Shown here: one piece after another, positions 3,090-39,319 of the stretch
Layout of the letters: every line of letters begins with the position of its first letter
Numbering within the stretch: position 1 is the first letter of the stretch
Source of the DNA: Hormiphora californensis
Lineage: Eukaryota > Animalia > Ctenophora
Reading direction: 5' to 3'
Assembly (NCBI GenBank): GCA_020137815.1
Contig: CM035353.1
Location: 3,348,001 to 3,412,000, forward strand
DNA: 64,000 bases
The notes under the pieces: model-generated
What the model saw: the letters and a program-made list of their open reading frames with translations, nothing else
Databases searched by the model: none
Told to the model about the DNA's origin: nothing
Program-made: the position numbers and the translations under genes

Positions 3090-4770
3090 TGGATGAGGCG
3101 GTGGAGTAGGGCTGTGGGTGGGGTGGCTGCAGGTGGGGTGGCTGAAGGTGGGGTGGCTGCAGGTGGGGTGGCTGCAGGTGGGGTGGCTGCATGGTGGGGG
3201 GCTGCAGGTGGGGTGGCTGCAGGTGGGGTGGCTGCAGGTGGGGTGGCTGCAGGTGGGGTGGCTGAAGGTGGGGTGGTGTGAGGGTGGGAGTGGGTGGGGT
3301 GAAGGTGGGGGTGGTCTGAGGTGGGGTGGCTGCATGTGGGGTGGCTGCATGTGGGGTGGCTGAAGGTGGGGTGGCTGCAGGGGGGGGTGGTGCTGAAGGT
3401 GGGGTGGCTGAAGGTGGGGTGGCTGCAGGTGGGGTGGCTGCATGTGGGGTGGTGGGTTGGCTGGCAGGGGTGGCTGCAGTGGGGTGGCTGAAGTGAAGGT
3501 GGGGTGGCTGCAGGTGGGTGGTGGGATGAAGGTGGGGTGGCTGAGGGTGGGTGGCTGAAGGTGGGGTGGCTGCAGGTGGGGTGGCTGCAGGTGGGGTGGC
3601 TGCAGGTGGGGTGGTGCTGAAGGTGGGGTGGCTGCAGGTGGGGTGGCTGAAGGTGGGGTGGCGGCTGTGAAGGTGGGTGGCTGATGTGGGGGTGGCTGAG
3701 GCTGTGGGTTTGGAGTAGGGTTTGCATGTGGGGTGGCTGCAGGTGGGGTGGCTGAAGGTGGGGTGGCTGCAAGGTGGGGTGGCTGAAGGTGGGGTTGGCT
3801 GCAGTTGGAGGATGGAACGGATGGGGTAGGAAGGTAGGGGGGACTGAAGGAGAGGAGGGCATGCGGTGGGGGTGGAGGTCTTGCAGACGTGGGGTGGTAG
3901 AAGGTGGGAGGCTGCAGAGGGGGTGGTGAAGAGAATGGGGGCTGAAAGAGGGGGGGTGGCTGCAAAAGGGGTGGCTGGTGCGGTGGAGTAAAGCTGAGGG
4001 GGTGGCGAAGGGGGGGGGTGAGTGGTGAAGATGAAGTGGGGGGCTGAGGTGGAGGTGCTAGTGGGGTAGTGCGCGGAAACAGTGAGGTGAGCGAAGGTGG
4101 ACGTGCGTGAAGGGGTGTGCGGGGGTAGCGCAGTGGGGAGGCGCAGGGGGGGGATGAAGGTTGGGTGGCAGAAGGTGGTGCGGGCACAGGAGGGGTTGGG
4201 AGTAGGTGGGAGGTTTGAGGTGGGTGACTGAAGGGTGAGGGTGGGACCTGGACAGTGGGGGTTATGAAGGTGGGGGTGATGAAGTGGGGGTGGATGAAGG
4301 GTGGTGGAAGAAGGTGGGGAGGATGAAGTGTGGGGTGGATGAACGGTGGGGTGGTGCATGCAGTGGTGGGGGCTGTAGGTGGGTTTCTGCAGTGGGATGA
4401 AGGTGGGGTGCGAAGGTGGCGTGAAGGGGGTGGGGTGGAGGGGTGGTGAAGGTGGGGTGGAGTGAGGTGGGGTGTGCAGCAGGTGGGGGGATGCAGGGGG
4501 GGTGCTGAGGTTGGGGTTGGCTGCAAGTGGGGTGGGATTAAGGTGGGGTGGCTGCAGGTGGGGTTGGCTGAAGGTGTGTGATGGGGGTGGCTGCAGGTGG
4601 GGGGGCTGCAGGTGGGGTGGCTGCAGGTGGGGTGGCTGCAGGTGGGGTGGCTGAAGGTGGGGTGGCTGCAGGTGGGGTGGCTGCAGGTGGGGTGGCTGCA
4701 GGTGGGTGGGGGGGTGGCTGCAGGTGGGTGCGAGGTGGGGTGGCTGAAGGTGGCTGTGGGTGGCGGAGGA
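3090..4770. repeat. 15-bp G-rich minisatellite (GGTGGGGTGGCTGCA)n with degenerate centre
   Basis: Regular 15-mer units at both ends and a degraded middle (~3700-4500). It produces QPPHL/SHPTC/ATPPA ORFs in all three minus frames because the C-rich strand lacks stops. Confidence 0.95.
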
Positions 4771-11194: not shown

Positions 11195-12615
11195 GAGTAT
11201 AAATTTACCGAAACCCTGATTTACAAGCCCCCGATTTAGAAAATTAACAGTTTTTCATGAGTAAGTTTTATTACAACCTATCAAAATTCAATGTGGTCTC
11301 CAGCTGTATAACATAGTTTCTATTTTTTTATTTTTATCCAGGTCATCGAATACTATATATCAGTTCCATGGTTGTTATTATCATGGATGCGTGAAATGTT
11401 TTCCAGAAGAACGGGATCAAGAAAGATTGTCAAGGTGGAGTCATAACTTTAATTACAACAGGACCGTGAGAATTACTGAGGAGTTTGAGAGTCTTGGCTA
11501 TAAGGTATAGAAGTATGTGCTATGACGGATGATTTTTTTTTCACTTCAAAATGATACATTCAATTTCATGATTGCACAGAAAAAATTTTTTCCCTGCCCG
11601 GGTGAATGCCGAAGGCATTCACCCGGATGCCTTTTTACTTTGTAAAAAGGCATAGCAGGGTTAGAATTCGAAAACGACATTTTGGTATACTAACTAATCG
11701 GTAGAGGGACCATTTTGGTCACACTTTCGTTGCGAGGGGCAACCTCGTGGCGCGCGCGATCTGACACTTGCGGAGTAAAATGCACACGCACAAACAATTG
11801 AAATTTTATGAGGGGCGCGTGGCTATAAACTGTAACGTGCGGCAAAATTTGTTTTATATCGGCCGCACGTTTTGATTGGGGGAAAATGGAGAAATTGAAA
11901 AATCTGTTTTGCGTTTTTTTCAAAAATTCGAAAAACACAAATCCCCATTTTGATTTTTGCGGACAGCTTATATATATTTACTCGTTGGGCGAGTTGAATG
12001 GCAAATCGAAGAGGGCAGGGAAACGTAGCATTATGGATACATAATGCAAATAATTCTTGTTTGTTAATCATAATTTCCTGGGTTCTGGTCCTGGGTCCGT
12101 CATATCCATATCATGGGTCCTTTTTACTGATGCTGGGTACAGTCCTGAAAATGACATTTTTTTTGTAAAGGTGGTTCAGATTTGGGAGCACGAGTGGAGA
12201 ATTAAAAGAAAAGGACTTAGTCTCTCAAGACGTTACATGTACCCTTTGGCACGTGCGGCATGGGCAGCAAGCGTTCATAACTACAAACGCCTGCTATTCC
12301 TCGTCGAATTCACGGTCGAAGTTCACGTCGAGAATATGGCAATTATGTCGGATGACCACTGTTTGAAACAAATTTAACCTCCAGTATCCGTCTCCATCTT
12401 CTTGAAAAATAAGAGTGTTACATAAATGTTTAATAACGCATATTTTCATAAAACAATGAAGGCGCGAGTATTCTGAGAATATATACCAAGATCTGCCTGG
12501 CGCCGCCGACCCCATCTGATCGCACTGCCATCAAATGGAGGTATGGCGCCGCCATACAGACCAAGATAGAACAAGTTAAGATTAAATGCTACTATATAAA
12601 CTCTAATATTTACAT

Positions 12616-15600
12616 AGGCCTAGTGTGTCCAGGTTGGACGCTCGAAACCAGGCCATGTCCACTTGGTCTTTGTTATACATCATACATATTATGTCTACTT
12701 CTCCCTGGTCCGTATACCAAATCGACCAACCGTCCTTCTATCCTCATTTTAGTTATTTATTAACTATCCTAAAAGCATTCAGGTAGTTTTATATTATTAA
12801 AGTCGGATTTTTTGAAGTTGTCACCCCCTGGGTGGCGCGCGATGTTTTATTTGCGCGTCGGAAACTTGTTTTGGCGGTTTTTTGGCTCTCACGCCTTTGT
12901 TTCTTGGCCGATTTCGTCGGTCAAAAGTTTTACGGACTCACAAAATTATTCTCTTTCCGGTGATATGCGGTTTTATGCTGAAGAGTGAGAGCAAGTGGGG
13001 GCTGTCACGCGCAAATACGACGCCGCGCGTGAAAAGGGGGGTGACAGTTTCAAAAAATCCGACTTTATATTACCGCCACATCTGAACACTCGGGCTGCTC
13101 GTCTGGGCACTTGAAACGTTCCTTGCGGACACTCGTTTGAGTGGGACTCAGTATTCGACACGTTTTATTCACGTGGCGAACTAAACAATGGTAGCCCACG
13201 TTGGGAACTGAATCCCAGAACTCCAGTAGTTAAGACAAAGGTACTATTATAGTCATGCTATTGTTCCACACACCTGGTAAGAACAGTATGTCCCTTCTCC
13301 GTGGCTGTTCGTCCTTGCGTCTATATCGCATCTAAATAATATGATAAATTGTCCCTTGTGCCACCGGCACACATCCTGCAATTTGTATGGAACCGTACAT
13401 TAAGTGTTAGTTAATTTAATCGATAACAAGTAACATTATAATTATTACTAGAATGGCGTGTATATTATTTCTTGTAAATGATAAACATGCCATTTTCGGG
13501 TCCTGAGACGAAGTCAGTGCTTGACATTCAGTTTGAAACATACATAAGTTCCGCAATCCGTCTCCACCTTCCTGAAAAATAAGGGTGTTAAACTTTTAAC
13601 AACGCATATATTGTCATAAAACAATTAAATAATATCCGCTCCAAAAACCCGTGGTGTCATTTTCCAGCCCTCTTGCTCCGCCAGGTGTCTATGTTACCAA
13701 CTTGCTCCCAGCATTATTCCCTCTACCAGCTTCTACCACTGAGGCGCGAGTATTCTAAGAAGATATACCAATTGATAGAACAAGTTCTAAGTACTATTAA
13801 CTTACATATGTGCATCCTAGCTGTATGGCACCCGAGGTATTTCCGGCGGTCCGTATTATTAGGCCTAGCGTGTCCAGGTTGGACGCTCGAAACCAGGCCA
13901 TGTCCACTTGGTCTTTGTTGTATATCATACATATTATGTCTACTTCTCCCTGGTCCGTATACCAAATCGACCAACCGTCCTTCTATCCTCATCTATCCAA
14001 GCTTGGTCTTTGTTAGGGCGTCCGGAGGGGAAGGGCTTCAGCGGTGCTCGTGGTTCGGACCTTTGGTTCTCTCTGAAACACATATCACATGTTGAGCAGA
14101 ACACATATTTTTTTCTTAAAATTGTATTTTTTCCCTTTTCAGCCACAAGGCTATAACTTAAATGTTTCTATTGCCACAAGGCGGTGGCCGAGGACGCCCT
14201 CACCGCCCTGGGGCGGCCTCCTCCGCCTTGTTACGTCCTTTATCCTTGAATAAATTAATCTCTAACAAAGTTTCTATCAAATTCTATAGTTCAGCAAAAG
14301 AGGTCTGTTTACAAGGTCCAATTCTTGTAGCCGTGCCATGGGGGAAACAGTTGTGCCTGAACCTCAGGTTCAGGCACGACTGTTTCCCCCAATGGTAGTA
14401 ATAAATTGGGGGTATTTTTCTCTGATCAAACAGAGGCACTTTCTCCTTAGTTTCGCACCTTCCTCACTCCAATGTTGAATTTTATCTTAAAGCAGACATA
14501 TGTTCCATCATCCGTTTCTACTTTCAAGTAGGTCCTGAATTGAGGGTCATGGTTCTCTCCCTCCTGCAATCACGACATATTATCTCCACGTAGTTTTACC
14601 TCAGGTTCAGGCACGACTGTTCCCCCCCCCCCATTATAGTTCTCCTTATTGCCGCGGAGAAGCTTCTAAACTAAACTATATTCTTATACATATTATATCT
14701 CTCCTAACGAGTAATTCACTCAAAATGTAACTTTCAGTCTTTTTTTCGATCCCTAGTTCCATCAAAACTCTAAGGTGAACCCAATGACTACAATAAGAGT
14801 CAACATGCACTTTTTGCATGTCCATTGAAAAATTTTCAATGAAAATGCCGGAACTCAGTTGCAGTTGCAGTATTAGAATGCGGGTTTTGATTATCATTAC
14901 TTCTAAGCAGATGTAACATGTTATTGCTAGAGGACGTTCATCAATATCGGGGTGAGACATCCAGTCCACCCTATCCTATGCTTGAGGTTGAGTTTGAAAC
15001 AAATTTAACGTCCAGAATCCGTCTCCATCTTCCTGAAAAATAAGAGTGTTAAATAAATGTTTAATAACGCATATTGTCATAAAACGATAAAGGCGCGAGT
15101 GTTCTAAGAAGATATACCAATTGATAGAACAAGTCCAGATTAAATACTATACTAAGTACTATAAACTCTAATACATATTATGTGCATCCTAGTTGTATGG
15201 TACTCGAGGTGTTTTCCGTATTCCAGTCCGTATTATTAGGCCTAGTGTGTCCAAGTTGGACGCTCGAAACCGGGCCATGTCCACTTGGTCTTTGTTATAC
15301 ATCATACATATTATGTCTACTTCTCCCTGGTCCGTATACCAAATCGACCAACCGTCCTTCTATCCTCATTTTAGTTATTTATTAACTATCCTAAAAGCAT
15401 TCAGGTAGTTTTATATTATTAAAGTCGGATTTTTTGAAGTTGTCACCCCCTGGGTGGCGCGCGATGTTTTATTTGCGCGTCGGAAACTTGTTTTGGCGGT
15501 TTTTTGGCTCTCACGCCTTTGTTTCTTGGCCGATTTCGTCGGTCAAAAGTTTTACGGACTCACAAAATTATTCTCTTTCCGGTGATATGCGGTTTTATGC

Positions 15601-16420
15601 TGAAGAGTGAGAGCAAGTGGGGGCTGTCACGCGCAAATACGACGCCGCGCGTGAAAAGGGGGGTGACAGTTTCAAAAAATCCGACTTTATATTACCGCCA
15701 CATCTGAACACTCGGGCTGCTCGTCTGGGCACTTGAAACGTTCCTTGCGGACACTCGTTTGAGTGGGACTCAGTATTCGACACGTTTTATTCACGTGGCG
15801 AACTAAACAATGGTAGCCCACGTTGGGAACTGAATCCCAGAACTCCAGTAGTTAAGACAAAGGTACTATTATAGTCATGCTATTGTTCCACACACCTGGT
15901 AAGAACAGTATGTCCCTTCTCCGTGGCTGTTCGTCCTTGCGTCTATATCGCATCTAAATAATATGATAAATTGTCCCTTGTGCCACCGGCACACATCCTG
16001 CAATTTGTATGGAACCGTACATTAAGTGTTAGTTAATTTAATCGATAACAAGTAACATTATAATTATTACTAGAATGGCGTGTATATTATTTCTTGTAAA
16101 TGATAAACATGCCATTTTCGGGTCCTGAGACGAAGTCAGTGCTTGACATTCAGTTTGAAACATACATAAGTTCCGGAATCCGTCTCCACCTTCCTGAAAA
16201 ATAAGGGTGTTAAACTTTTAATAACGCATATATTGTCATAAAACAATTAAATAATATCCGCTCCAAAAACCCGTGGTGTCATTTTCCAGCCCTCTTGCTC
16301 CGCCAGGTGTCTATGTTACCAACTTGCTCCCAGCATTATTCCCTCTACCAGCTTCTACCACTGAGGCGCGAGTATTCTGAGAAGATATACTTAATTTATA
16401 GAACAAGTTTTAAGTACTAT
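12616..16420. repeat. Tandem segmental duplication, period 2622 bp
   Basis: 12616-~13800 is nearly identical to 15238-~16420 (identical ORFs at 12882 and 15504). Further partial copies of the unit lie at ~6680-6860 and 8420-9400. Confidence 0.9.
12798..13067. mobile_element. TIR MITE (TAAAGTCGGATTTTTTGAAGTTGTCACCCC family)
   Basis: ~30-bp TIRs; other copies at 15420-15689 and ~58788-58943, plus a one-ended copy at ~60133. Confidence 0.8.
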
Positions 16421-18141
16421 TAACTCTAATATTTAAATTTGACTGGTAGTCATCAACTTGGCTAGGCTCTTCATTTATAGGCATCTGTCAGGTCCTTGAC
16501 CTTGGATAGTTCTTCGTTGATGCTCATCTCTGTAGTAGCAGGTTCTCCATTCTGGTCACAGCACCATTTGTAGGGTTTGCCGGGCCTGCTCGTACACAGC
16601 GGTAGACCTTGCGTTGTTGTAGTCAGATGAGAACGAGTATTTTAGGTGTCGTGGTTGGAACTGCCCACGGAAAGATAAAACATGATATAGAACTCCGCCC
16701 GCCAACCAAACTAATACGCTTTGAATATATTCCAAAAACGTTAAAACAGAAAATAAGTGTGCTAAACAAACAGGAAAATGTATAAAAAGATGCAGAAAAG
16801 AAATATTAATAGAAAAATGAAAATATTACAGAAAATGATAATGCTGAGATTAAAATAGTGAAACAAAAAATAATGTAATTTTGAATCAGATCTAAGCAGA
16901 AAAAAAAGTAGAAAAAAACAGAAAAGAAAGATTGAAAGAAAAATGAGAAAAAGAAAGAAAATATTACAGAGGTAAAAAATCAGACAGGGTAAAATCGACG
17001 CGATACTTACCAAAATGATATGGCCACTTCTCTCTGTGTCCTTGTCCCTTGTTCTCGGTCTTATCCTGGATTTCAGTGACATGCGGAAGGCAACGTATGT
17101 ATCTAGATCCGTATCAACCTGAAGATAGGTTGTTTGCTTCTTCATTATGGCAATTCCTCCGTAATTGTTACAGGAGTGGTGTGCAACCTTGTAAATCCAT
17201 TTCTCTCTCTATCAATCATCCGATATATCGATCATCCGATTTTTGCACGCTCCAATATCACACCACTTTCTCCCTCTCTCATGCTCTCACAAGTGATATA
17301 CAACATATATATATAACATAATAAGGAGTTTGCGGAGTGGCATTGTGAGAGCGAAAGAAAAGTTAGATTACCGTATTTATTTAACTCTCTTCCGAGGTGG
17401 TGACGCTCTATAGCGAGGGTAGTTGAGGAGCGATGGCAGTGTCAGCTGAGCTGGGTTTGGGGCTCCTCAAAGTGTATATCCATCTTAGTGAAACAGTAAA
17501 GCTTTCTAAAACCGCAAACTAAAAACTTTCTAAAACCCAATTAATATAATATCGGATTACCAGTACTGTTTAAAAACATGAGCGTCTTAATCGCATCTAA
17601 ATAATATGATAAATTGTCCCTTGTGCCACCGGCACAAGCTGAGCTGGGTTTCCGTGCTCGGGCTCCTCAAAGTGTATCTTGGTGAAATTCATTGTTGGGG
17701 TGTAATTGAAGTTATCCTGAGCTGGTTGTAGCTTGGAGGGAGCAATGATTGTGGTTGATAGTGGAGTGGTTTCATCTAATTACCGTAAAAGAGTCCTGGC
17801 AGCCTTTATCCGGCCCTCACTCTCGGGGAAATCCCCCATCTATATATATATCTACATCCCCCATCTATAGCAGGCGCCCGATGCTCTTTTTCTTTTTGAA
17901 GGGAAGTCATCCTCATTGGAACTCCAGAAGTTGTAGCTCGAGCTCTTCTATACCAATGCTCGTACGAGGCTGGTTCGAATCATAGTTTCGTTATCAGCGG
18001 GATAACTTTGTGTTCCTCGGTCTGTGGTTCCAGGTCTGCGGGTTTCTTCTAGCAGAGAAACCTCCTCGGAAACCGTGATGCTTTCCAGGGAGGGGGCGGG
18101 GTGATATTCGCCTCCAGGATAGTGGTTTCTGGATGGCTTTA

Positions 18142-19795: not shown

Positions 19796-21196
19796 ACCCT
19801 TCTGGATCTGGGTCCTCCGAATGTATAGTCATCCTCGTGAAGTCCATGTGTAGAAAGATCTTGGTGTACCGTGTAGGTTGTACAGGAGTGGTAACGATTG
19901 TGGTTGAGATCATTGCAGTCGAATGCTGGTTCTTTTATACTCAGCAGGCTGGAGTGGTTTCATCCAATTACCGCGTGTGTCTTCCAAAATGATTATAAAT
20001 GAACATTATAATAGAGTTAACTCGACCGTCAAGCAATAATTAGAACAGATCTAAGTAACATTCTTACTTGTATATACATATTTATAATATGAATGTCTCT
20101 TATATCACATTTTACAATATTTCTAAAAAGTGCCTAAATAAGTATAGAGAGTTTAAGTGTTATTTTTCTGATAACATGCATTGATTTCTCATGATTTCCA
20201 GGATAGTTGTCCCATAACCAATTCTTATGCTTCAACTGGTATTTTATTTTCATAATTCCTGTGTCGAATAGTTATCACAGCTGCTTGTTCACTCTTTCTA
20301 TTCGATACACCCCATTGTATTAATCTGTCAGTTGGTTGGAGGACACACGCACGTCTCTTCAAGCATTTTGAAGCGCTTGCAGACATCACATGAAGTGAAC
20401 GCTTTCCTGCTCCGAGGTTTGTTAGTTTCCAAAAAGTCTTGGTAAATTCTGTGTATTGGAATGATATCTAATATATCTCCTTTTTCAGGGATGTAAAGGG
20501 CCTCAGGGAAATTCGGAATCTGACTTTTGTGAGCCAGAAACCAATTTCAGTATATATATATATATATGGAGGGAGGGTATGAATTGTGCACGCCTAAATG
20601 TGGAGGTGGGGCCAGGCTCTTGGTATAGAGCCGCTAGATCGGTTATTCGGTATATTCATTACCCATGATTTGTTTGAGAATGAGGGTAGTATAAATGGGG
20701 TATAGATGATATTATGTAACTTTCAGTAAAAGAACAAAGGTAAAGCTCAAGTAATTCCAAACTCGAAACTAAACGTTAAATGTAAAGAAGGTCGGTGGGT
20801 ATCTTGCGTCGTTTCGGTCTCCAAAAGTTTCTCCTCAAGGTTCCTCGCTTCAACCTTATAAAGGTGGCTCGGCTGGTCCTCACGAGACTCTGCTAGTCCA
20901 ATCAGATCCAATCTTCCTTGCAGTCGTAGTGTAGTAGGCAAATCTGTACGATGTCTTTATGGTCCTAGTTGCATGTGTTGTCCTCTCTCCAGGCACTATA
21001 GGCAGTTTCATTTCACGGTTCAGCCCCATCACTCTAACTAATACAATATATAATATAACACTAGTAAATAAGTCTCTGGGGTCCCTCCCGCATCACACCG
21101 ATCCCAAGGGCCACGAGGGCTATGGATCCCATCGCCACATCCTCCCCCTTCCCGGAAGAACAGAGGGCCCAGAGGAGGCACTGTTTGGAATTTTAC

Positions 21197-21310
21197 TTCC
21201 CTAGCTTCCTCAGTTTTTCTCCAAACTCCATGATGGATTCGCCCGGTTCTTGTTTCGCTTTCTGAAGCTTCAGCCGAGCGATTAGTTTGCTCTCCTTGCT
21301 CAGCGACTGT
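21197..21310 (-). pseudogene. Retrotransposon Gag fragment
   Basis: Minus-strand translation QSLSKESKLIARLKLQKAKQEPGESIMEFGEKLRKLGK* matches the Q-x3-E-S-[IV]-x2-[FY]-x2-[RK]-L motif of Ty3/gypsy-type Gag. The 3' part is repeated at 36784-36857. Confidence 0.6.
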
Positions 21311-22683
21311 ATGAGGGGGATGACTTTATTGTTGCCGGTGCCTGCCTTCGAGGTCTCCTGGATTTAGGGCTAGCCGGGCTCCTTGGTTTGGGACTCTTAG
21401 CCGGCGGTCTGCTTGGACCGGTGTTGTCCCTGTGCACCTGGTCTTTGTGAGGGAATCCTAGCTCCTATAGGCGTATCTGTGGAGGGTGTTTATTGTCCTG
21501 TTGATACACCGCGGGTAGTATCACCGGGAGGGGAGAATTCTGTAATTATTATAGTGCTTGACGTATCGGTTCAGTTGATTCCCAGAGCAGGGTTTTGGCG
21601 GCTTGTTTAGTCCCCGCCGACAGGGTTATGAATTGGTCTACCTCATGTCTGATGGCTCGTTTCCGGTGGGTTTTTTCTAAGTACAGCGTTCTGCTACGCA
21701 ATGGTATGGAGTCCATTCTGTTTAGTTGGTAGAACATGTCAAAAGTGCGAAAAACAACTTTACAGCTTTTTAATCACATAATTATAAGCTATTTAATCAC
21801 ATAAATATTTTGATGAAGGAGCAGTGTGTCCTAACAACACGCTGAACAAACGACCACGACTTAGACGTAACACTTACCAGTATTATCGTATCCCGTGTGA
21901 GCTGAATCCTTCACAGTCTCCTTGATAACGGCTTCAACCGTGGTCTTAAGTAGAGTTTGAAACAGACGAAAACGCCACCGCCCTAGTAAAGGTCGCGCGG
22001 GCAATTATGGTGAAAATTGGCCAATCTACAAACATTAATTCGCGAATCCTCAACAATATTGGCCAATCTTCGCTGGATGCGCAAATAGATTGGCCAATCT
22101 TCGCTGGCCATGGCTGAATTTCACAGCTGTTTCGCGCGCACACAACCCAAGATAACTGGTTTCGCGCCCCACGTCTATGCCACTCGATGCTCGCCAAATC
22201 TCCCGGTAAGGGATCAGCCGGTAAGGGATCAGCTGCAGCCGATGATGCTATTTGAATAATGTTACTTTGCTGGCAACATGCTTCCAATGAGATTCAATAA
22301 CATGCAGCAATGTGAATTGAGATGATCCAATTATGAAATGTTACTTTTCGGTAATCTGGTACAGTCTTATCGGTGCAGTGATACTATACTGATTTGAAAA
22401 GTAGACACCAAGAGGATTGCAGAACACCCGGAATTTTGATTTTAGCATAACGGGAACCATTTCCTCCCCATGGCGCCCCTTTTAGGGACCAAAACAAGGT
22501 CAGGGCCAGAGGGTACTCGCGACACACGGTCCACGGTCTCTGCGCCCCCAGCGACTCTCTCGACAGACACAAATTGGGTCGAGGAGAGTTAAAACTTCCT
22601 CAGAAATATTCAGGTGTTTTGGAATGACCGATGTGAAAATTCAATTATATGATATATATACCAACTAAAATTTAAAATTACAA

Positions 22684-22765
22684 GAGCGGATTTGGCTCAG
22701 TTGATAGCAGGTTGTTTGTCACCCTCAGGGCGTCGGGTTCGAGACCAGAGCATCGACCCTTTTTC
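22684..22765 (+). ncRNA. tRNA-derived SINE head or tRNA pseudogene
   Basis: A-box-like TGGCTCAGTTG (22693), B-box GGTTCGAGACC (22736), T-run at ~22760; no convincing acceptor stem. Confidence 0.5.
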
Positions 22766-24475
22766 CATATTTTTTAAAAACATTTTTGAAATTGGCACAG
22801 TAGAATGAACTGCCCCATTTTCCAAAATTTGGGGGAAAAAACTTATATGAATTTATTTAAAAAAAACCACCGTTTAAACCCGGGATAATCGTTCCGGGAT
22901 TAAAAAGGAGGGGAAAAGAGAGAAGCGAGAGAAGGGAGAGGAGGCGGAAAGAGAGAAAAGCGGAGAGGAGAAAAAAGAGAGAGAAAGGAGGATAAAGAAA
23001 AGAGGGGAGGGGAAGGGGCAGAGAGAGGGGGCAGCCCACAAGGGGGGCGGGAACAGAATCAACCGGAGCGCGCCCCGTCTCTCCTCCCCTTCCCCCCAAG
23101 GGAACCCAAAAATTTTTTTTAAAAACAGCTGCACATGCAGCAGACTACATTCACGTTTAGATCACAAACCATCCCTTTAATTTTACAGATAAAAATCAAA
23201 TACAAAACACGTCTCTCTCATTTTCTGGTGGTATTGGATAGGATTTTTTACCCCACAGGAATGGGCAAACTTGAATTAGTCAGATATTGTATTAAAAACG
23301 TAGTACACAACGTTAGAAATTGAAATGTAAAAACAACGTCTTGTCCATCGATCGTCTCCTTGGCCCTTCCCAAGGGCCCTTTTTCAAAAAAGGGGGGGGG
23401 GGGGGAAAAAAGGGAAAAAACGGGGCCCAAAAAAAGGGAGGGGAAAAAAAAAAAAAAAAAAAAAACCAAAAAAAAAAACAACCCCGAAAAACGGGGAAAA
23501 AAGGTAACCAAAAGAATTAAAAAAAATAAAATCCCATGGTTAAAAAGGGGAAAAGGGGAAAAAACACCTGAAAGAGGGAAAAAAAAAAAACAAAGCAAGG
23601 GGGGAAAAAGTTTTGAGAGGGGGCCGGGAAAAGGGGAAAGAGGAAGGAGAGAGAGAGAGGAAAAAAAAAAAAAAGAAAGAAAAAAAAAAAAGCAAAAAAC
23701 TAAAAAAGAAAAAAGAAAAAAAGATGAGAAAAAAAAAAAATCCCCAACTAAAAAAAAGAAAAAAGGCCCCCGGAAAAAAAAGCCCCCTGAAAAAAAAAAA
23801 AAAATGAGGGAGAAAAAAAGGGGAAAAAAAGCCCAGAAAAAAAAGAAAAAAGAGGAAGAGAATGGAAAGAGCGGGGAAAGGAAGGGGAAAAAAAGAAAAG
23901 GGGAGAGGGCGCCCGAAAAAGGAAAAGATGAGAAAAGTAGAAAAGAGAGTGCGAGAGAGGGAGAGGAAAAAGGAGAGAGAGGGGGGGGGGAGAGGGGGGG
24001 GGGGGGGCGGGCGGGGGGGGGGGGGGGGGCGGGGGGGGGCGGGCGGGGGGGGGGGCCCCGGGGCGGTGGGGAAAAGAAAGGGGGGGGAGGGAGAGGGAGG
24101 AAGAGGGGGGAGGGGAGAGGGGAGAAAAAGGCCCAAAAAGGGGAGAGAGAGGGGAGGAAGGGGGGGAGAGGGGAGAAAGGGGAGAGGAGGGGAGAGGGGG
24201 AGAGGGGGAAGAGAGAGAGAGAGGGGAGAAAAAGAGAGAGGGAGAGAGAGATTGGGGGGTCCCTTCTCTCTCTTCCTCTGGTCTCTAACCTCTCTCTCTC
24301 TCCTTCTCTCTCTTGGAGACTCTCCTTTAAATTGCTAATCTGAGCTGATCAGATCAGCTGTATACTATTGTGACAACTAAATCGTGTTTTTACCACGATA
24401 GTTCGTCACAATAGTATACAGCTGATCCCTCGCTTGCCTACACGATATAGAATAGGCAAGCGAGGTTGCCAATAC

Positions 24476-27400
24476 CAAGCTGTCAGTGATTCTAGGGTCC
24501 AAAACCGGCCTCTTCAAATTCCTGGCGTCAGCTTTCCCGAATGTTCTCAGGGTATGGCTGTAGACTGTCTCTTCATCGAACTCCTCGAACAGTATCGTTC
24601 TGAAATATAGTTTAAGTCAGACACCAAGTTACCAGAACCCTGATTTACTGATATCGATTTACAGGGTGTCACCACTCACCGGTGTCACGACTCCGGGGTC
24701 AGAGGGGTATCTAGGAGGGTCAGAGGGGTATATGGGAGGGTCAGAGGTGTATCTATAGGAGGGTCAGAGGGGTGTCTGGGAGGGTCAGAGGGGTATCTAG
24801 GAAGTTTAGAGGGGTGTATGGGAGGGTCAGAGGGGTGTATGGGAAGGCGAGAGAGGTATTTGGGAAGGTGAGAGGGTGTCTGAGAGGGTTAGAGGGGTGT
24901 CTGGGAGGGTCAAAGGGGTATTTGGGAGGGTCAGAGGGGCGTCTAGGAGGGTCAGAGGGGTATCTATAGGACGGTCAGAGGTGTATATGGGTGGGTCAAA
25001 GGGGTATTTGGGAAGGTAAGAGGGGTATTTGGGAAGGTGAGAGGGGTATCTAGGAGGGCTAGAGGGGTGTATGGGAGGGTCAGAGGGGTATCTAGGAGGG
25101 TCAGAGGGGTATATGGGAGGGTCAGAGGGGTATATGGGAGGGTCAGAGGTGTATCTATAGGAAGGTCAGAGGGGTGTCTGGGAGGGTCAGAGGGGTATAT
25201 GGGAGGGTCAGAGGGGTATATGGGTGGGTCAGAGGTGTATCTATACTAGGGTCATAGGGGTATCTGGGAAGGTTAGTGGGGTATTTGGGAAGATGGGAGG
25301 GGTATTTGGGAAGGTGAGAGGGGTATCTAGGAGGGTTAGAGGGGTGTATGGGAGGGTCAGAGGGGTGTCTGGGTGGGTCAGAGGGGTATCTAGGAGGTTT
25401 AGAGGGGTGTCTGGGTGGGTCAGAGGGGTATCTAGGAGGTTTAGAGGGGTGTCTGGGAGGGTCAGAGGGGTGTCTGGGAGGGTCAGAGGGGTATCTGGGA
25501 GGGGCAGAAGGGTATCTGGGAGGGTCAGAGGGGTGTCTGGGAGGGTCAAAAGGGTATTTGGGAAGGTCAGAGGGGTGTCTGGGAGGGTCAGAGGGGTATC
25601 TAGGAGGTTTAGAGGGGTGTCAGAGGGGTGTATGGGAGGGTCAGAGGGGTGTATGGGAGGGTCAGAGGGGTATCTGGGAGAGTCAGATGTGTACCTAGGA
25701 GGGTCAAAGGGGTATCTATAGGAGGGTCATAGGGGTATCTGGGAGGGTTAGTGGGGTATTTGGGAAGGTGAGAGGGGTATTTGGGAAGGTGAGAGGGGTA
25801 TTTGGGAAGGTGAGAGGGGTATTTGGGAAGGTGAGAGGGGTATCTAGGAGGGTCAGAGGGGTATCTAGGAGGATCAGAGGGGTATCTGGGAGGGTCAGAG
25901 GGGTATAAGGGAGGGTCAGAGGGGTGTATGGGTGGTTCAGAGGTGTATCTATAGGAGGGTCATAGGGGTTTCTGGGAGGGTTAGTGGGGTATTTGGGAAG
26001 ATGGGAGGGGTATCTGATCTAGGAGGGTCAGAGGGGCATTTGGGAAGGTGAGAGGGGTATTTGGGAAGGTGAGAGGGGTATCTAGGAGGGTTAGAGGGGT
26101 GTATGGGAGGGTCAGAGGGGTATCTAGGAGGGTCAGAGGGGTATATGGGAGGGTCAGAGGGGTGTATGGGAGGGTCAGAGGGGTATCTGGGAGAGTCAGA
26201 GGTGTACCTAGGAGGGTCAGAAGGGTATCTGGGTGGGTCAGAGGGGTGTATGGGTGGGTCAGAGGGGTATCTAGGAGGGTCAGAGGGGTATATGGGAGGG
26301 TCAGAGGGGTGTATGGGAGGGTCAGAGGGGTATCTGGGAGGGGCAGAGGGGTATCTGGGAGGGTCAGAGGGGTGTCTGGGAGGGTCAAAGGGGTATTTGG
26401 GAGGGTCAGAGGGATGTCTGGGAGATTCAGAGGGGTATCTGGGTGGGTCAGAGGTGTATCTAGGAGGGTCAGAGGGGTATCTGGGAGGGTCAGAGTGGTA
26501 TTTGGGAAGGTGATAAGGGTATCTAGGATGGTCATAGGGGTATCTGGGAGGGTTAGTGGGGTATTTGGGAAGTTGGGAGGGGTATCTGATCTAGGAGGGT
26601 GAGAGGGGTATTTGGGAAGGTAAGAGGGGTATTTGGGAAGGTGAGAGGGGTATCTAGGAGGTTTAGAGGGGTATCTAGGAGGTTTAGAGGGGTGTCTGGG
26701 AGGGTCAGAGGGGTACCTGGGAGAGTCAGAGGTGTATCTAGGAGGGTCAGAGGGGTATATGGGAGGGTCAGAGGGGCGTATGGGAGGGTCAGAGGGGTAT
26801 CTGGGAGGGGCAGAGGGGTATCTGGGAAGGTCAGAGGGGTGTCTGGGAGGGTCAAAAGGGTATTTGGGAAGGTCAGAGGGGTGTCTGGGAGGGTCAGAGG
26901 GGTATCTAGGAGGTTTAGAGGGGTGTCAGAGGGGTGTATGGGAGGGTCAGAGGGGTGTATGGGAGGGTCAGAGGGGTATCTGGGAGAGTCAGATGTGTAC
27001 CTAGGAGGGTCAAAGGCGGTATCTATAGGAGGGTCATAGGGGTATCTGGGAGGGTTAGTGGGGTATTTGGGAAGGTGAGAGAGGTATTTGGGAAGGTGAG
27101 AGGGGTATTTGGGAAGGTGAGAGGGGTATCTAGGAGGGTCAGAGGGGTATCTAGGAGGATCAGAGGGGTATCTGGGAGGGTCAGAGGGGTATAACGGAGG
27201 GTCAGAGGGGTGTATGGGTGGGTCAGAGGTGTATCTATAGGAGGGTCATATGGGTATCTGGGAGGGTTAGTGGGGTATTTGGGAAGATGGGAGGGGTATC
27301 TGATCTAGGAGGGTCAGAGGGGCATTTGGGAAGGTGAGAGGGGTATTTGGGAAGGTGAGAGGGGTATCTAGGAGGGTTAGAGGGGTATCTAGGAGGATCA

Positions 27401-29975
27401 GAGGGGTATCTGGGAGGGTCAGAGGGGTATAACGGAGGGTCAGAGGGGTGTATGGGTGGGTCAGAGGTGTATCTATAGGAGGGTCATATGGGTATCTGGG
27501 AGGGTTAGTGGGGTATTTGGGAAGATGGGAGGGGTATCTGATCTAGGAGGGTCAGAGGGGCATTTGGGAAGGTGAGAGGGGTATCTAGGAGGGTTAGAGG
27601 GGTGTATGGGAGGGTCAGAGGGGTATCTAGGAGGGTCAGAGGGGTATATGGGAGGGTCAGAGGGGTGTATGGGAGGGTCAGAGGGGTATCTGGGAGAGTC
27701 AGAGGTGTATCTAGGAGGGTCAGAGGGGTATATGGGAGGGTCAGAGGGGCGTATGGGAGGGTCAGAGGGGTATCTGGGAGGGGCAGAGGGGTATCTGGGA
27801 GGGTCAGAGGGGTATCTAGGAGGGTCAGAGGGGTATATGGGAGGGTCAGAGGGGTGTATGGGAGGGTCAGAGGGGTATCTGGGAGAGTCAGAGGTGTACC
27901 TAGGAGGGTCAGAGGGGTATCTGGGATGGTCAGAGGGGTGTCTGGGAGGGTCAGAGGGGTATCTGGGAGGGTCAGAGGGGTATCTGGGAGGGTCAGAGGG
28001 GTATCTGGGTGGGTCAGAGGGGTGTATGGGTGGGTCAGAGGGGTATCTAGGAGGGTCAGAGGGGTATATGGGAGGGTCAGAGGGGTGTATGGGAGGGTCA
28101 GAGGGGTATCTGGGAGGGGCAGAGGGGTATCTGGGAGGGTCAGAGGGGTGTCTGGGAGGGTCAAAGGGGTATTTGGGAGGGTCAGAGGGATGTCTGGGAG
28201 ATTCAGAGGGGTATCTGGGTGGGTCAGAGGTGTATCTAGGAGGGTCAGAGGGGTATCTGGGAGGGTCAGAGTGGTATTTGGGAAGGTGATGAGGGTATCT
28301 AGGATGGTCATAGGGGTATCTGGGAGGGTTAGTGGGGTATTTGGGAAGTTGGGAGGGGTATCTGATCTAGGAGGGTGAGAGGGGTATTTGGGAAGGTAAG
28401 AGGGGTATTTGGGAAGGTGAGAGGGGTATCTAGGAGGTTTAGAGGGGTATCTAGGAGGTTTAGAGGGGTGTCTGGGAGGGTCAGAGGGGTGTCTGGGAGG
28501 GTCAGAGGGGTATCTGGGAGAGTCAGAGGTGTATCTAGGAGGGTCAGAGGGGTATATGGGAGGGTCAGAGGGGCGTATGGGAGGGTCAGAGGGGTATCTG
28601 GGAGGGGCAGAGGGGTATCTGGGAGGGTCAGAGGGGTGTATGGGAGGGTCAGAGGGGTATCTGGGAGGGGCAGAGGGGTATCTGGGAGGGTCAGAGGGGT
28701 GTCTGGGAGGGTCAAAGGGGTATTTGGGAGGGTTAGAGGGATGTCTGGGAGATTCAGAGGGGTATCTGGGTGGGTCAGAGGTGTATCTAAGAGGGTCAGA
28801 GGGGTATCTGGGAGGGTCAGAGTGGTATTTGGGAAGGTGATAAGGGTATCTAGCATGGTCATAGGGGTATCTGGGAGGGTTAGTGGGGTATTTGGGAAGT
28901 TGGGTTGGTTACGGAGTCACCCCGTGAGCTAGCGCAGAGGGGGAATTTCATTACCAAGAAGTTGGGAGGGGTATCTGATCTAGGAGGGTGAGAGGGGTAT
29001 TTGGGAAGGTAAGAGGGGTATTTGGGAAGGTGAGAGGGGTATCTAGGAGGTTTAGAGGGGTATCTAGGAGGTTTAGAGGGGTGTCTGGGAGGGTCAGAGG
29101 GGTGTCTGGGATGGTCAGAGCGGTATCTGGGAGAGTCAGAGGTGTATCTAGGAGGGTGAGAGGGGTATCTAGGACGGTCAGAGGGGTATCTGGGAGGGTC
29201 ATAGGGGTATATGGGTGGGTAAGAGGTGTATCTAGGAGGGTCATAGGGGTATCTGGGAGGGTTAGTGGGGTATTTGGGAAGATGGGAGGGGTATCTGATC
29301 TAGGAATGTCAGAGGGGTATTTGGGAAGGTAAGAGGGGTATTTGGGAAGGTGAGAGGGGTATCTAGGAGGTTTAGAGGGGTGTCTGGGAGGGTCAGAGGG
29401 GTGTCTGGGAGGGTCAGAGGGGTATCTGCAGGAGAGTCAGAGGTGTATCTAGGAGGGTGAGAGGGGTATCTGGGAGGGTCAGAGGGGTATCTAGGACGGT
29501 CAGAGGGGTATCTGGGAGGGTCAGAGGGGTATATGGGTGGGTAAGAGGTGTATCTAGGAGGGTCATAGGGGTATCTGGGAGGGTTAGTGGGGTATTTGGG
29601 AAGATGGGAGGGGTATCTGATCTAGGAATGTCAGAGGGGTATTTGGGAAGGTAAGAGGGGTATTTGGGAAGGTGAGAGGGGTATCTAGGAGGGTTAGAGG
29701 GGTGTCTGTGAGGGGTATCAGATACCCGGTATCTAATCTAGGAGGGTGAGAGGGGTGTCTGGGAGGGTCAAAGGGGTATTGGGAAGGTGAGAGGGGTATC
29801 TAGGTAGGATTTAAGGGGTATCAGTTACGGTAATTTTTGGTCCAAAACTCCATTTTTACCATTTTTCTTATATATATATGTACTTACGTCATGAACTTGG
29901 TGGAACGGACAATGTCCTCTGCCCTTTTCATAAATCTCTCCACCACCTCATCATCTGCCTTATCTGGCGTGTATT
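24476..29975 (-). CDS. BEN-domain-like protein, two exons inside the TIR element
   Basis: Exons 29975-29888 (tag|...|gtaagt) and 24599-24476 (ttcag|...|gtattg) join in phase to give EYTPDKADDEVVERFMKRAEDIVRSTKFMTTILFEEFDEETVYSHTLRTFGKADARNLKRPVLDPRITDSL, resembling the BEN pattern 'lF..e.l..hsl.G...kp.LDP'. Start and end not found. Confidence 0.6.
24695..29820. repeat. 21-bp G-rich satellite (GGGTCAGAGGGGTATCTGGGA)n, ~5.1 kb
   Basis: About 240 variant units (estimated from length); source of the RVRGVSG/GGSEGYL/PLTLPDT ORFs. Confidence 0.97.
28905..28957. mobile_element. 53-bp TTGGT...ACCAA mini-element, 9-bp TSD
   Basis: Interrupts the satellite; TSD gaagttggg (28896-28904, 28958-28966). 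Confidence 0.8.
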
Positions 29976-31066
29976 CTATAAAAGGGGTGGGTATTAGAGA
30001 ACCTCATTACAAGTCAAACATCGCGAGGACAAGCACATGAGTTGAAAAGAATGTTAGAACAACATCTGAACAGTGAACGATAATTGCAACTGATCTGGCA
30101 AAAATGAAATAGTAAAAAATTGGTTAGCATACGTTGTTTTTGGGTAAGTGAGCATCAAGCTCAAGATCGTTGCGTAGGGTACAAAAAAACTGGCATACGC
30201 TACAGGCTCCTTATCGCGAGGCCCAAGGCTATTCCCAAAAAAGGTCATACGGAGCATGGAAACGTATGAGGTGAATCATATAAGGACATGCCAAAAAGTT
30301 CATCAGCAAAAATCGGGAAAAATGAAAAATGAAAAAAAAACAAAATTAAAGCTGGGTGAATTTTAACGCTTTTTGCGCGGCTTTAACAGTTTTAGCGCGG
30401 CTTTACAATTGCGCGTTCTGAATGTCAGCGAAGATTGGCCAATATATTTGCGCATCCAGCAAAGATTGGCCAATATTGTTGAGGATTCGCGCATTAATGT
30501 TTGAAGATTGGCCAATTTTCACCATAATTGCCCGCGCGACCTTTACTAGGGCGTCGGTCTCTATTCGGAGGTATGTTGATGCTTTCCTTTGTAACATCCG
30601 TAATAATTAGTCGCTTCAACGGCATACTAAAGAAAAGCCTAAAGAAAATGATGTTAATAAACAGGCGGCAACAGGGGGTGGTGAGCTGTAGGGAGTCTGT
30701 TCTGTTTAGTTGGTAGAACATGTCCTCTAGGGCTTCTACGAGGTGACTAGTCCGGACTGAGGATATTCGTGTACAGTTTTCTGCATCTGTTGGAAAACTT
30801 TGGGTCCAGTAGGGTTGCTTCCTCGGCTAGTCCCGGTACAGTTGGGGACTCGGGCATCTCCTCTTCCTAATTACTAATGGTCGAGTCTTCACTTCACGTA
30901 CATTTCCGTTCAATTCTATTTCACTTTAAATAACATGCCAACTACAAGGACCTTCTCATCGTATGAACTATCTGATATAGCTACATTTTTTATTACATTT
31001 ATGAGGGCCAAGTATGGTTCGACTGTACCCTGTTGACCCCTTTGGTCCTGGATTATATAGCCTGGA

Positions 31067-31157
31067 CCTCGTGTACAGGGGGTTGCAGTGGTCGGGGTCC
31101 TCGTGTGCATGGGGTTGCAGTGGTCGGGGTCCTCGTGTACAGGGGGTTGCAGTGGTC
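31067..31157. repeat. 32-bp tandem repeat x3
   Basis: cctcgtgtacagggggttgcagtggtcggggt starts at 31067, 31099 and 31131. Confidence 0.85.
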
Positions 31158-32710
31158 AATAAAGTAATCACTCTTTGACGGGTAGAATGCGTCTCTATTA
31201 AAAGCCATGTAAAGTCTAACAGCTGTAACCGAATGCTTAATTATAATGAGATCATGTCATTTTGGTATAATCGTGGTTAGGTCAGGCTGGTACCTGATGG
31301 TGGCCAGTCCTGGGGCCGTTATTAGTCCTTATAAATTATAATTCCAGTACAATTAACCTCACTCAAGGCAGCTGGTGTTTCGAGATGAACTACTACTTAA
31401 TGGTTGTCCTTTCTAGGTAAGTAAGATTCTACTAAAATCTAATCTCCAATTCTTGGATTACTGACCTTTTTCTCGGTATTGGGGGGTCATCAGGACTGGT
31501 CCCGGTTACAGGTTTGCAAGACAGCACATCCTGGAAGGTACGTGTTAGCAAACTGTCAAAAATGCGAAAAACAACTTTACAGCTTTTTAATCACATCAAT
31601 GTGTTGATGAAGGAGCAGTGTGTCCTAACAACATGCTGAACAAACGACCACGACTTAGACGTAACACTTACCAGTATTATCGTATCCCGTGTGAGCTGAG
31701 TCTAATGAGCTGAATCCTTCACAGTCTCCTTGATAACGGCAAGAATTCTCGATCTTGGCTCTCAGTCTATATATCTAGTCTATATATCTATATTCTCGAC
31801 CTTGGCTTCAACCTTGGTTTTAAAAACAGTTTAAAACAGACGAACACGCCACAGTCGGTCTCTATTCGGAGGTATATTGTTGCTTTCCTTTGTGTGGTTG
31901 CATCCGTAACAATAAGTCGTTTAAGGGGAATGCTAAAGAAAAGCCTAAAGAAAATGGGAATGATGTTAATAAACAGGCGGCAACAGGGGGTGGTGAGCGG
32001 TATGGAGTCCGTTCTATTTAGTTGGTAGAACATGTCTCCAGTGCTTCTACCAGGTCTCAGACTCTGGATGTTCGTATTGAGTCCGTTCTGTTTAGATGGT
32101 AGAACATGTCCTCCAGGGCTTCTACCATGTCTCGGACTGAGGATGTTCGACGAACATTGTTCTCGCACAGTTTTCTCCATCTGCCGGATAACTTTGGGTC
32201 CAGTTATCTCGGACCATCGGTTGAGCCATGGGGGCTATTGGTTGAGCCGAGAAGTTCATTTCCGGTGTGAAATAGACCGGTGGTGCGGGTGGCGGTGCAA
32301 GCAAGGTTGCTTCTCGGCTAGTCCCGGTACAGTTGGAGCCTCGGGCATCTCCTCTTCCTAATTACTAATGGTCGAGTCTTCACTTCACGTACATTTCCGT
32401 TCAATTCTATTAACATGCCAACTACAAGGACCTTCTTATCATATGAACTATCTGATATAGCTACAGTTTTTATTACATTTAAATTTATATTTATATTTCG
32501 GACAGCTGGTCTGTATTTTACGTCCCTTCGTCGTGGTAAGAAGGCCTCGGTTGCAGCTGAACGTACTTGTTCTTTGTATTTTCTCGCGCGGTAACACTGT
32601 CTAATTATGATTAATACAATGACTGTGAGTACAACTAAAATGATTGATATCAGGCCTGACCATTTGAATACTTCATCTAGGGTGCTATATTTCCAACATC
32701 ACTTACCTAT

Positions 32711-36117: not shown

Positions 36118-37982
36118 AAAGGATATACGGGGTAGAATTAGTTAATAGAGTTATACAAGCAAAGTCTCTAACGTAAAATACAACTTTGAAGTGTCTGTCC
36201 CTCCCATGTTCTTCTCCCGTCTTTTATTTATAGTCCCAACAACCCACGCAGTAAATATCCTCTAGCGCTCTGTTTTATGCGTTTTTAATCACTCGTTCCT
36301 CCTGGTAATCACTCGCTCCTCCTGGTTCCTGTCTCGCATGATGGTTCTCGAGCTCCTCTTCATGAATAGTATAGCACGAGGATTAACACCGCTTTCTTCT
36401 TCTTCTCTCCAGGCTGAGCAGGGGTAATTCGCCGAGGGGTAATTCGCTGAGAGGTATTTCACCGTGACGTCATTCCCACCAATGCAAAATCACAACATAA
36501 TCATAATAATACAAATTATAACTCGCTCACAGGGAGCACATATTTGTGGCTCCCGCATCTACACTTAAGAAAGCCAGCGGATCAGTTGCCTTTCTTTTAT
36601 CCCGACATTTTCTCTTTCGCAGACAGTATTGATCCGTTTTTCTCTTCTTCATTTCTTCTTCCCTACTCACTGGATCCAGATCCGCCAACTGATTAAGTGG
36701 CCGGACAACAACATTTTTGCGTTTCGGAGGCATTACTAGCAAAATTCAACGTACAGAACACTAACTATATTAGTATACCTGAGTCCCCTTCCCGGAAGAA
36801 CAGAGGGCCCAGAGGAGGCACTGTTTGGAATTTTACTTCCCTAGCTTCCTCAGTTTTCCCCCCCCCCCCACCCTTCTCGGTGTGTTTTTTCTAAGTACAG
36901 CGTTCTGCTACGCAATGGTAAGGAGTCCGTTCTGTTTAGTTGGTAGAACATGTCTTCCAGGGCTTCTACCAGGTCTCAGACTCTGGATGTTCGTGCACAG
37001 TTTTCTGCATCTGTTAAGAAACTTTGTGACCAATTATCGAGAAGTGTAAAGTAAACCAGTGGTGCGGGAGAGATGTCTAGTACAACTCTCCCCCTATTTT
37101 AAGAAAAATTTTATCAATTTAGATATAAATAAAGTAATCACTCTTAGATGGGTAGAATGCGTCTATATTATAAGACATGTAAAGTCTAACAGCTGTGACC
37201 GAATGCTTAATTATAATGAGATCAGGTCATTTTGGTATAATCGTGGTTAGGTCAGGCTGGCACCTGATGGTGGCCAGTCAAAAGTGCGAAAAACAACTTT
37301 ACAGCTTTTTAATCACATAATTATTTTAATGAAGGAGCAGTGTGTCCTAACGACACGCTGAACAAACGACCACGACTTAGGCGCAACACTTACCAGGATT
37401 ATAGTGTCCCGGGTTGGGTGGTCAGTCTCGCTAGTCGAATCCCTCACAGTCTCCTATCACGGCCAGAATCCGGCATCTTGGTCTCAACCGGGGTCGTAGA
37501 AACAACTTGAAGCACACGTACCTGCGTCTGTTTCAATGCGTAGATAACTGGTAGTCTTCCTCATTACAGTGCAGTTAGTCACTATGAGTCGTTTAAGGGG
37601 CATCCTAAAAAGAAAATGGGAATGATGTTAATAAACAGGCGGAAACAGGGGGGACTTTGTGAACTCTGTTTATTGGAATGATACCTAATTATCTCCCTTT
37701 TTAGGGATAAAAATTAGTGCCTCTGGAAAAATTCGAAATCTGAACTTTGTGAGCCAGAATCCAATTTCAGTATATATACGGAGGGAGGGTATGTTATGTT
37801 GATCACGCCTATTATATGTGGATTGTGGAGGTGGGGCCAGGCTCTTGGTATAAAGCCGCTAGATCGGTTATTCGGTATATTCATTACCCATGATTCGGTT
37901 GAGAATGAGGGTAATGTAAATGGGGTATAGATTATATATGTAACTTTCAGTAAAAGAACAAAGGTAAAGCTCAAGTATTTCC

Positions 37983-38032
37983 TTGGTGACGCGGTCACCC
38001 CTCCACTAGGGCCGCGCGAATGTCATCACCAA
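37983..38032. mobile_element. 50-bp TTGGT...ACCAA mini-element, 9-bp TSD
   Basis: TSD agtatttcc (37974-82, 38033-41); the empty site is present in the paralog at ~20750. Confidence 0.85.
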
Positions 38033-39319
38033 AGTATTTCCAAGCTCGATAATAAACGTCCAATGGAAGGAAGTTTCAGTGAGTGAGTCTGTGTTCTGCT
38101 GCGTAATGGTATTGAGTCCGTTCTGTTTAGATGGTAGAACATGTCCTCCAGTGCTTCTACCAGGTCTCAGACTCTGGATCTTCGTGCACAGTTTTCTGCA
38201 TCTGTTGGAAAACTTTGCGTCCAGTTATCTCGGACCATCGGTTGAGCCATGGGGGCTATTGGTGGAGCCGAGAAGTTCATTTCCGGTGTGAAGTAGAACG
38301 GTGGTGCGGGCGGTGGTTCAAGCAGGGTTGCTTCCTCGGCTAGCCCCGGTACAGTTGGAGCCTCGCGCATCTCCTCTTGCTAATGGTCGTCTCTTCAATT
38401 CACGTACATTTCGGTTCAATTCTATTTCACTTTGAATAACATGCCAACTTCAAGGACCTTCTCATCGTATGAACTATCTGATATATATATATATAGTAAC
38501 TATCTGATATATATATGTATAGCTACATTGTTTATTACATTTATGGGGGCCAAGTATGGTTCGACCGTACCCTGTTGACCCCTTCAGTCCTGGATTATAT
38601 AGTCTGGACAGTCGTATTCTTTCGGGATTCTGAGAGCGACATTCTCATTCTGCACTGCTTGTTTCCTTATTTCTGCTTTTAGTTGGGCTGTGGCATCGGC
38701 TGCTAGGTGAATTGGTGTATATCATCTTCGATTTCTCATTGCATTTCTTTTCTATTAGCCCTATTGATTTGCCCCAGTTGAAGCTTGAAAGCGAATACCC
38801 ATTGATACATGTACATCTGTTTTAGTATCTTGGGGCCTATTATATCATTCCGTCGCACTGTTCTTACCGACAGATCCTTGCAGATCTGTAACGTTTCTAT
38901 TTTTTCAGCCGCTGTTAGTCTCCCATTCACGTTGAGACCTTTGATCCAGATCCTCTTTACCTTGCGGGCGGTTCTTATCATGCTTCCATTTTGGTATATT
39001 TAATAATTTAATAAACGCGGTCATCCATAAATATTATTTATGGATGACCGGGTTGTTGCCGTATACGCGTAGATGAATTCTTCTACGAGGGGGCTCACTC
39101 CATAGTCCATACCTCGCGAACGTTTCCGCGATTTCCTTCCCCCCTTGGGCCCCATTTTTCTCGGTCTCCTCCAGTATTAATTGTACGTATTCTGCTGCCT
39201 TTTTCCATTTTTTCCGTCAGGGAAATGATGATGAGCGCTGTTATGTAGTGTGTCCCCTTCATGAAGAACCTGTAGAGGTTGAGAATAGTGTAACCAGACA
39301 CTTTTTTTGAGTATTTCAT

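Follow-up and report, generated by a model that had tools for sequence, protein, structure and literature searches.

We analyzed a 64,000-nt window of Hormiphora californensis contig CM035353.1 (the window being the whole stretch of DNA considered here) and focused on a transposable element of 8571 bases at positions 21981-30551. We interpret it as a real, young, non-autonomous element with ends of the animal CACTA/EnSpm type, which most likely retains the 3' part of a BEN-type helper gene of its own, and we assign this reading a probability of roughly 0.7. The original prediction, made from the letters of the stretch, had proposed a recently mobile, non-autonomous CMC/EnSpm-type element, a view borne out by the CCC ends, the 2-bp duplication, the existence of other insertion sites, and the lack of a transposase match.

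The element is bounded by terminal inverted repeats (TIRs) of 126 bases each, located at 21981-22106 (plus strand) and 30426-30551 (minus strand). As predicted, they carry CCC..GGG ends: 122 of their 126 bases are identical, and both begin with CCCTAGTA. Within the window, an 18-base pattern for the ends is matched exactly at two places, both facing inward, and with 3 mismatches at a third (2110-2127), for a chance expectation of 0.01. Each TIR also includes three copies of the 10-bp palindrome ATTGGCCAAT (at 22016, 22058, and 22089 on the left and at 30434, 30465, and 30507 on the right), i.e., the three internal motifs previously noted, and this palindrome was found nowhere else in the 64-kb window. 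Separately, lone minus-strand ends beginning CCCTAGT lie at 2110-2127 and near 38011, perhaps relics of related families.

The dinucleotide CG adjoins the element on both sides (21979-21980 and 30552-30553), consistent with a 2-bp target-site duplication observed at this one site. When the element is removed and one CG is kept, the flanks align through the junction with a paralogous empty site at 31804-32055 (plus strand), which lies outside the element in a multi-copy host repeat (84.6% identity over 253 columns). This join scored 71, compared to 66 when no CG was kept and 65 when both were kept. TIRs beginning with CCC, along with 2-bp duplications, define the animal CACTA elements termed TRC in PMC1636069. 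The proposal that the insertion precisely interrupts an open reading frame left intact in the paralog was not supported: a 5-base indel ~25 bases from the insertion site sets the two host copies apart, so that the long frame of one does not correspond to that of the other, and Pfam yielded no match for either copy. An interrupted host reading frame was thus rejected. The DNA that received the insertion is itself a multi-copy repeat in rearranged form (21145-21978, 30553-31309, 31554-32530, and 36785-38609), of which the window contains several partial copies and for which Pfam gave no match.

Additional copies of the family were identified in public sequencing runs. Seven runs carry part of the stretch, six of them from one organism and two samples and one a marine metagenome in which it makes up a small share, and contigs from 4 of 8 listed runs were compared with positions 29830-31060 only (right arm and flank). 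One contig in run X1 and five in run X6 cease to match at 30551 and continue with other letters, which indicates that this boundary is right and that other insertion sites exist; since the ends of these copies adjoin other letters, the CG must lie outside the TIR. Depth, here a rough guide and not a copy number, was 24-35 in X1 for the listed flank contigs, 72 and 88 for two interior contigs, 968 for a contig over 30371-30491, and ~5500 when summed over the TIR bins. The loose ends behind 30551 and this high summed depth are those of dispersed copies with the same ends. The right subterminal segment (30371-30425) is common to a far more abundant family member, the X1 form with a depth of 968 (record 3), which diverges at 30371, and loose ends before this position were found in X1, X5, and X6. 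This suggests a family with abundant ends and only a few copies of the present interior; X5 and X6 are without cover over 30040-30291, and such absence of cover proves nothing. Run X8, possibly an RNA run, had no contigs on 29830-31060 and carries no information on expression. Among JGI metagenome and IMG/VR contigs, no loci were retrieved by protein or by TIR pattern.

The original prediction had recognized no transposase, in agreement with our scans. Pfam matched none of the 49 frames taken from the unique sequence of the element (satellite and 23350-24260 excluded), so that no Transposase_21 or DDE frame of the kind internal to autonomous CACTA/EnSpm elements was recognized there, and no transposase was found among 80 frames of at least 90 residues in the rest of the window.

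Judging from their sequence, two exons of the element, both on the minus strand, code for protein. Exon A (29888-29975, 88 nt) is an internal coding exon with in-frame Met at codons 15 and 28, while exon B (24377-24599, 223 nt up to a TAG stop) is a terminal coding exon that would hold the larger part of a likely BEN domain. Border signals predict a GT-AG intron of 5288 nt between them (24600-29887, minus strand): exon A lies between an AG acceptor and a GTAAGT donor, and an AG precedes exon B at 24599. One of the three frames of the joined exons is open, and yields 102 residues before the stop at 24377, as expected for the in-phase pair originally described. A relative of exon A was detected in one X1 contig and one X6 contig. 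The X6 match has 9 differences in 106 bases and spans 29878-29983 in a 122-base contig, i.e., exon A and ~10 bases per side. All five differences listed are at third codon positions, four synonymous and one E to D, with three further differences outside these five; alternative frames of exon A reach at best 3/5, and random changes would give at least 4/5 synonymous with P 0.005. For exon B up to its stop, a phmmer search of protein sets retrieved P0001 (E 3.8e-17, 55% identity over residues 3-73), which together with its two cluster mates P0004 and P0005 (all three with 55-56% identity to exon B) is an unnamed ENA protein from a contig of <700 bases. The remaining two of the three phmmer hits, P0002 and P0003, belong to repeat proteins and were set aside as chance matches. 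Word-based searches for more relatives returned none with a 41-residue query, only P0001 near the query length, and, among 1437 candidates, none of greater length.

These exons were first described as cargo, but they look like what is left of the 3' part of a helper gene belonging to the element itself. Exon A opens with two bases completing a codon and hence needs an upstream exon, and no convincing start exon was found over the 450 bases that separate it from the right TIR, where the sole ATG-to-donor candidate is 2 codons long with a weak donor. Alternatively, the exons could be true cargo, with both exons and their intron taken by Pack-type capture from an ordinary host BEN gene. The X6 relative, which covers exon A and little beyond it, is what would be expected of any gene under selection, and no transposase inside the element ties the exons to it. 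However, the X1 relative of exon A has a depth of 69, very roughly three times that of the flank contigs, no annotated host protein is found among the exon relatives, and the last exons of a spliced gene within CCC ends reproduce the layout of SmTRC1, a Schistosoma element. We thus regard capture as an unlikely origin.

Less likely still, and closest to the original prediction, the present copy could be a working mini-gene, transcribed from the right end, whose 88-residue BEN-only protein would start at Met codon 15 of exon A and would help or block transposition through TIR binding. The splice borders and the entire joined frame are indeed intact, this Met is in frame, the interior seems to be present in a few copies, and CCAAT boxes are common promoter elements. 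Yet an intact frame is expected even without selection in a young deletion copy, and the sequence from the TIR to exon A contains 12 ATGs. Further, conservation in the exon A relative reaches upstream of Met codon 15: the 14 codons before it are conserved, with two of the five third-position changes, and one more change at codon 14, falling among them, which places the ancestral start further upstream. In an extended version that we likewise consider a long shot, this transposase-less copy would splice the BEN-only mini-protein over the 5-kb G-rich satellite intron, the protein would bind the ATTGGCCAAT palindromes at the many ends of the family and thereby regulate it in trans, and the tRNA-like cassette described below would shield the copy from silencing.

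The domain itself is likely of the BEN type, which is not proven. In an ESM Atlas feature search with the 73 residues of exon B, the top three hits were BEN clusters with scores of 0.92-0.93 and 188-199 of 256 features shared (195 of 256 at score 0.93), a language-model similarity to BEN proteins. BEN clusters accounted for 16 of the 30 hits, and the 10 best named hits all agreed. The exon protein also includes a loop ending KRPVLDP and then long helices, which fits what we take to be the BEN layout. The BEN fold is described as five helices with a middle loop in PMC10789644, and DUF4806 as a BEN subtype there and in PMC11075544; the passages of PMC5704228 consulted deal with bracovirus Ben genes only. 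An AlphaFold model of exon B only, built from a 4-row alignment, was of low confidence (predicted local distance difference test, pLDDT, 65.6; predicted template modeling score, pTM, 0.35); with 0 Foldseek matches and a best VIA-align Z of 4.2 to generic long helices, it is uninformative either way.

Several observations weigh against the reading of a CACTA/EnSpm-ended element with a BEN-type helper remnant. Exon A and exon B (each alone), as well as P0001, P0004, and P0005, had no Pfam match, BEN included, at E-values up to 1 or 10, so that the original BEN assignment is upheld by the Atlas clusters and not by Pfam. BEN is carried by 18-39% of the members of these Atlas clusters, shuffled proteins reach a score of 0.9 in 4-10 of 100 cases, and the first 41 residues of exon B alone gave no Atlas match. 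Exon B relatives in the large protein sets are limited to the three unnamed proteins from short contigs. The synonymous changes, drawn from one contig per run, reflect selection somewhere between the sequences compared and do not single out the element's own gene, and the in-frame Met in exon A would allow a short protein. At the insertion site, the paralog lacking the element has AG instead of CG; a duplication, as first proposed, is still the best reading given the CG on both sides and the best-scoring join, but it is based on one site with one mismatch. Finally, no autonomous partner was seen in the data searched, so the superfamily call is based on the ends, and we infer the link between exons and transposase.

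It is very unlikely that the exons are coding but specify some other small helical domain. This would fit the missing Pfam matches and the lack of a match to the exon protein among solved-structure sequences, but not the Atlas feature search, nor the KRPVLDP loop and long helices, which presumably reflect a BEN layout. That the TIRs are two independent short elements, or that the span is mis-assembled, is hardly credible: the far more abundant family member does share only the right 181 bases, positions 22900-24260 look poorly sequenced, and no contig spans the element, but the only two exact ends face inward, the outer flanks, once joined with a single CG, align with the paralog, and one X1 contig carries on past the TIR for 237 bases of left interior.

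If the element does carry the remnant of its own helper gene, its history may be outlined as follows. A transposase from an intact partner elsewhere in the genome would have moved it through a 2-base staggered cut, and the full helper protein of this partner might act like maize TnpA, docking on each TIR at its three ATTGGCCAAT palindromes. An internal deletion between the right end and exon A would have removed the transposase and the 5' exons, so that the present copy probably makes no full protein. The satellite would have grown within the intron through slippage and unequal exchange, and both satellite and tRNA-like cassette would be passengers. Deletion copies moved in trans are known from maize dSpm. 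Plant CACTA elements differ from the present element in having CACTA ends and a 3-bp duplication.

Several of these features are shared with TRC elements, namely those of Schistosoma (SmTRC1), Tribolium, Aedes, and Hydra: CCC ends, a 2-bp duplication for which an empty paralogous repeat provides the proof (here with the mismatch noted above), a TIR-internal repeat, an internal tandem-repeat block, deleted copies, and spliced exons outside the transposase frame. According to PMC1636069, the first 8 bases of the Tribolium TIR quoted there are the same as in the present element, SmTRC1 includes tandem repeats, occurs also as deleted copies, and makes a short TnpA-like product by splicing, and a TnpA-like role is expected for SmTRC-PrA, which has no recognized domain. 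The criteria of CCC ends and 2-bp duplication apply likewise to Hydra Spongebob/EnSpm-4N1_HM in PMC4298943, and CMC elements with CAC or CA ends are reported to have 2-bp duplications in PMC13189230, PMC6004678, and PMC12730594. Unlike TRC elements, the present element has no Transposase_21 frame in the parts scanned, its TIRs are 126 bp long as opposed to 10-54 bp, its helper exons resemble BEN whereas SmTRC-PrA has no recognized domain, and it includes a tRNA-like cassette and a 5-kb intronic satellite. The layout may also parallel the two-component design of maize En/Spm (TnpD/TnpA), whose second, spliced protein binds motifs repeated at the ends (PMC1636069).

A role for BEN-like domains at transposon ends has a bacterial counterpart, as the BEN-like domain DBD1 of the Tn3 transposase TnpA reads the inverted repeat (PMC9579193). 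In Drosophila, the Insv site is given as CCAATTGG and the ELBA site as CCAATAAG in PMC4281564. By its letters, the TIR palindrome holds the CCAAT/ATTGG half-sites of both, in an order opposite to that of the Insv site. The exon protein is like BEN proteins in that its language-model features fall with BEN clusters, and unlike them in that it yielded no Pfam or fold match.

No BEN helper gene in a CACTA element was found among the titles and abstract openings listed in our literature search, a scope that did not extend to Repbase entries. The kind of element is already known, and the detail not found in print is the likely BEN domain with its candidate binding palindrome. A fast-evolving DNA-binding helper like maize TnpA had been predicted for animal CACTA elements in PMC1636069, with the domain left unnamed. 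The candidate pair put forward here is the likely BEN domain and the 10-bp palindrome present three times per TIR. If true, it would link BEN chromatin factors to end recognition in animal transposons, as structurally seen in bacterial Tn3. If, in addition, a mini-protein regulated the family in trans, BEN would supply the animal equivalent of maize TnpA that has long been missing, and its binding site would already be available. The present copy is a broken relic; it can serve as a supporting case, but the point would be better proven elsewhere.

At the end of exon B, two adjacent strong hairpins (24352-24465, minus strand) take in its last 29 codons and the stop and run into the 3' untranslated region. 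Their strength reaches a z of -14.2 relative to shuffles, and the first hairpin was equaled by 0 of 500 synonymous recodings. Identity with the homologues is 21/42 residues before the first hairpin, 10/13 in it, and 8/16 after it, i.e., the residues on its arms are the best conserved. An alternative in which exon B ends at 24476 and the hairpins form an inserted miniature inverted-repeat transposable element (MITE) was rejected, as the homologues match on to the stop. They may serve as an RNA signal or represent a palindrome retained, at the DNA level, in coding sequence.

The intron is almost wholly made up of satellite, as first described: a G-rich 21-bp minisatellite of ~240 units (24696-29801, plus strand) accounts for 5106 of its 5288 bases, with 49% G on the plus strand. 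It contains long exact internal duplications, of up to 292 bases at a spacing of 1776 bases. A 53-bp insert inside the satellite (28905-28957), with short inverted ends and a 9-bp direct repeat on either side, has the look of a very small insertion by a transposon of a different type; it has no second copy in the window. Outside the element, a 15-bp G-rich minisatellite at 3117-4753 has clean ends and a middle that decays to noise. Given this array and the tandem-repeat block of SmTRC1, such arrays are not special. On the left side of the element, a purine-rich low-complexity stretch (22900-24260) is similar to the noisy middle of the 3117-4753 array, and includes 15 homopolymer runs of at least 6 bases within 23340-23700, compared to 6 in 2449 control bases. 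This stretch may be poor sequence, and with the 3117-4753 array may point to low-quality stretches in the assembly; as a result, the sequence of this region and the exact size of the element are uncertain.

Further left, a decayed tRNA-like cassette for RNA polymerase III (Pol III) is located at 22686-22764 (plus strand), antisense to the exons and pointing inward. An A box (22693-22703), a B box (22736-22746), and a T5 run (22760-22764) are all present, in keeping with the Pol III-type cassette of the original prediction, and in sequence terms it would qualify as a type 2 Pol III unit, i.e., A box, tRNA-like B spacing, and T run. The exact B box at 22736, 43 bases after the A box and followed by T5, is the only one in the window. 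When the unique interior was resampled, 0 of 2000 sequences had the combination of A box, B box, and T run and 18 of 2000 an exact B box, for a pattern that was composed after the site was seen. The nearest comparison is with tRNA-derived type 2 Pol III units and the heads of short interspersed nuclear elements (SINEs). The cassette is like type 2 units in its A box to B box distance, a T-arm with 4/5 pairs, and the T run after it, and unlike tRNA-derived units in lacking a cloverleaf, with 4/7 pairs in the acceptor stem. A tRNA gene was rejected, as neither ARAGORN nor Rfam made a call and the fold was no better than shuffles; at its loosest setting, ARAGORN made 93 calls elsewhere in the window and none on the cassette. 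The window contains no second copy, and no SINE body or tail was recognized. By default, the cassette is probably a passenger.

Other repeats were detected elsewhere in the window. A 1.19-kb duplication (12615-13802 and 15237-16425) is 99% identical between its copies, each of which contains a 270-bp element (12798-13067 and 15420-15689) whose inverted ends measure 61 bp. Two 592-bp MITE-like elements, at 46437-47028 and 48262-48854, are 96% identical and have perfect inverted ends of 30-38 bp.

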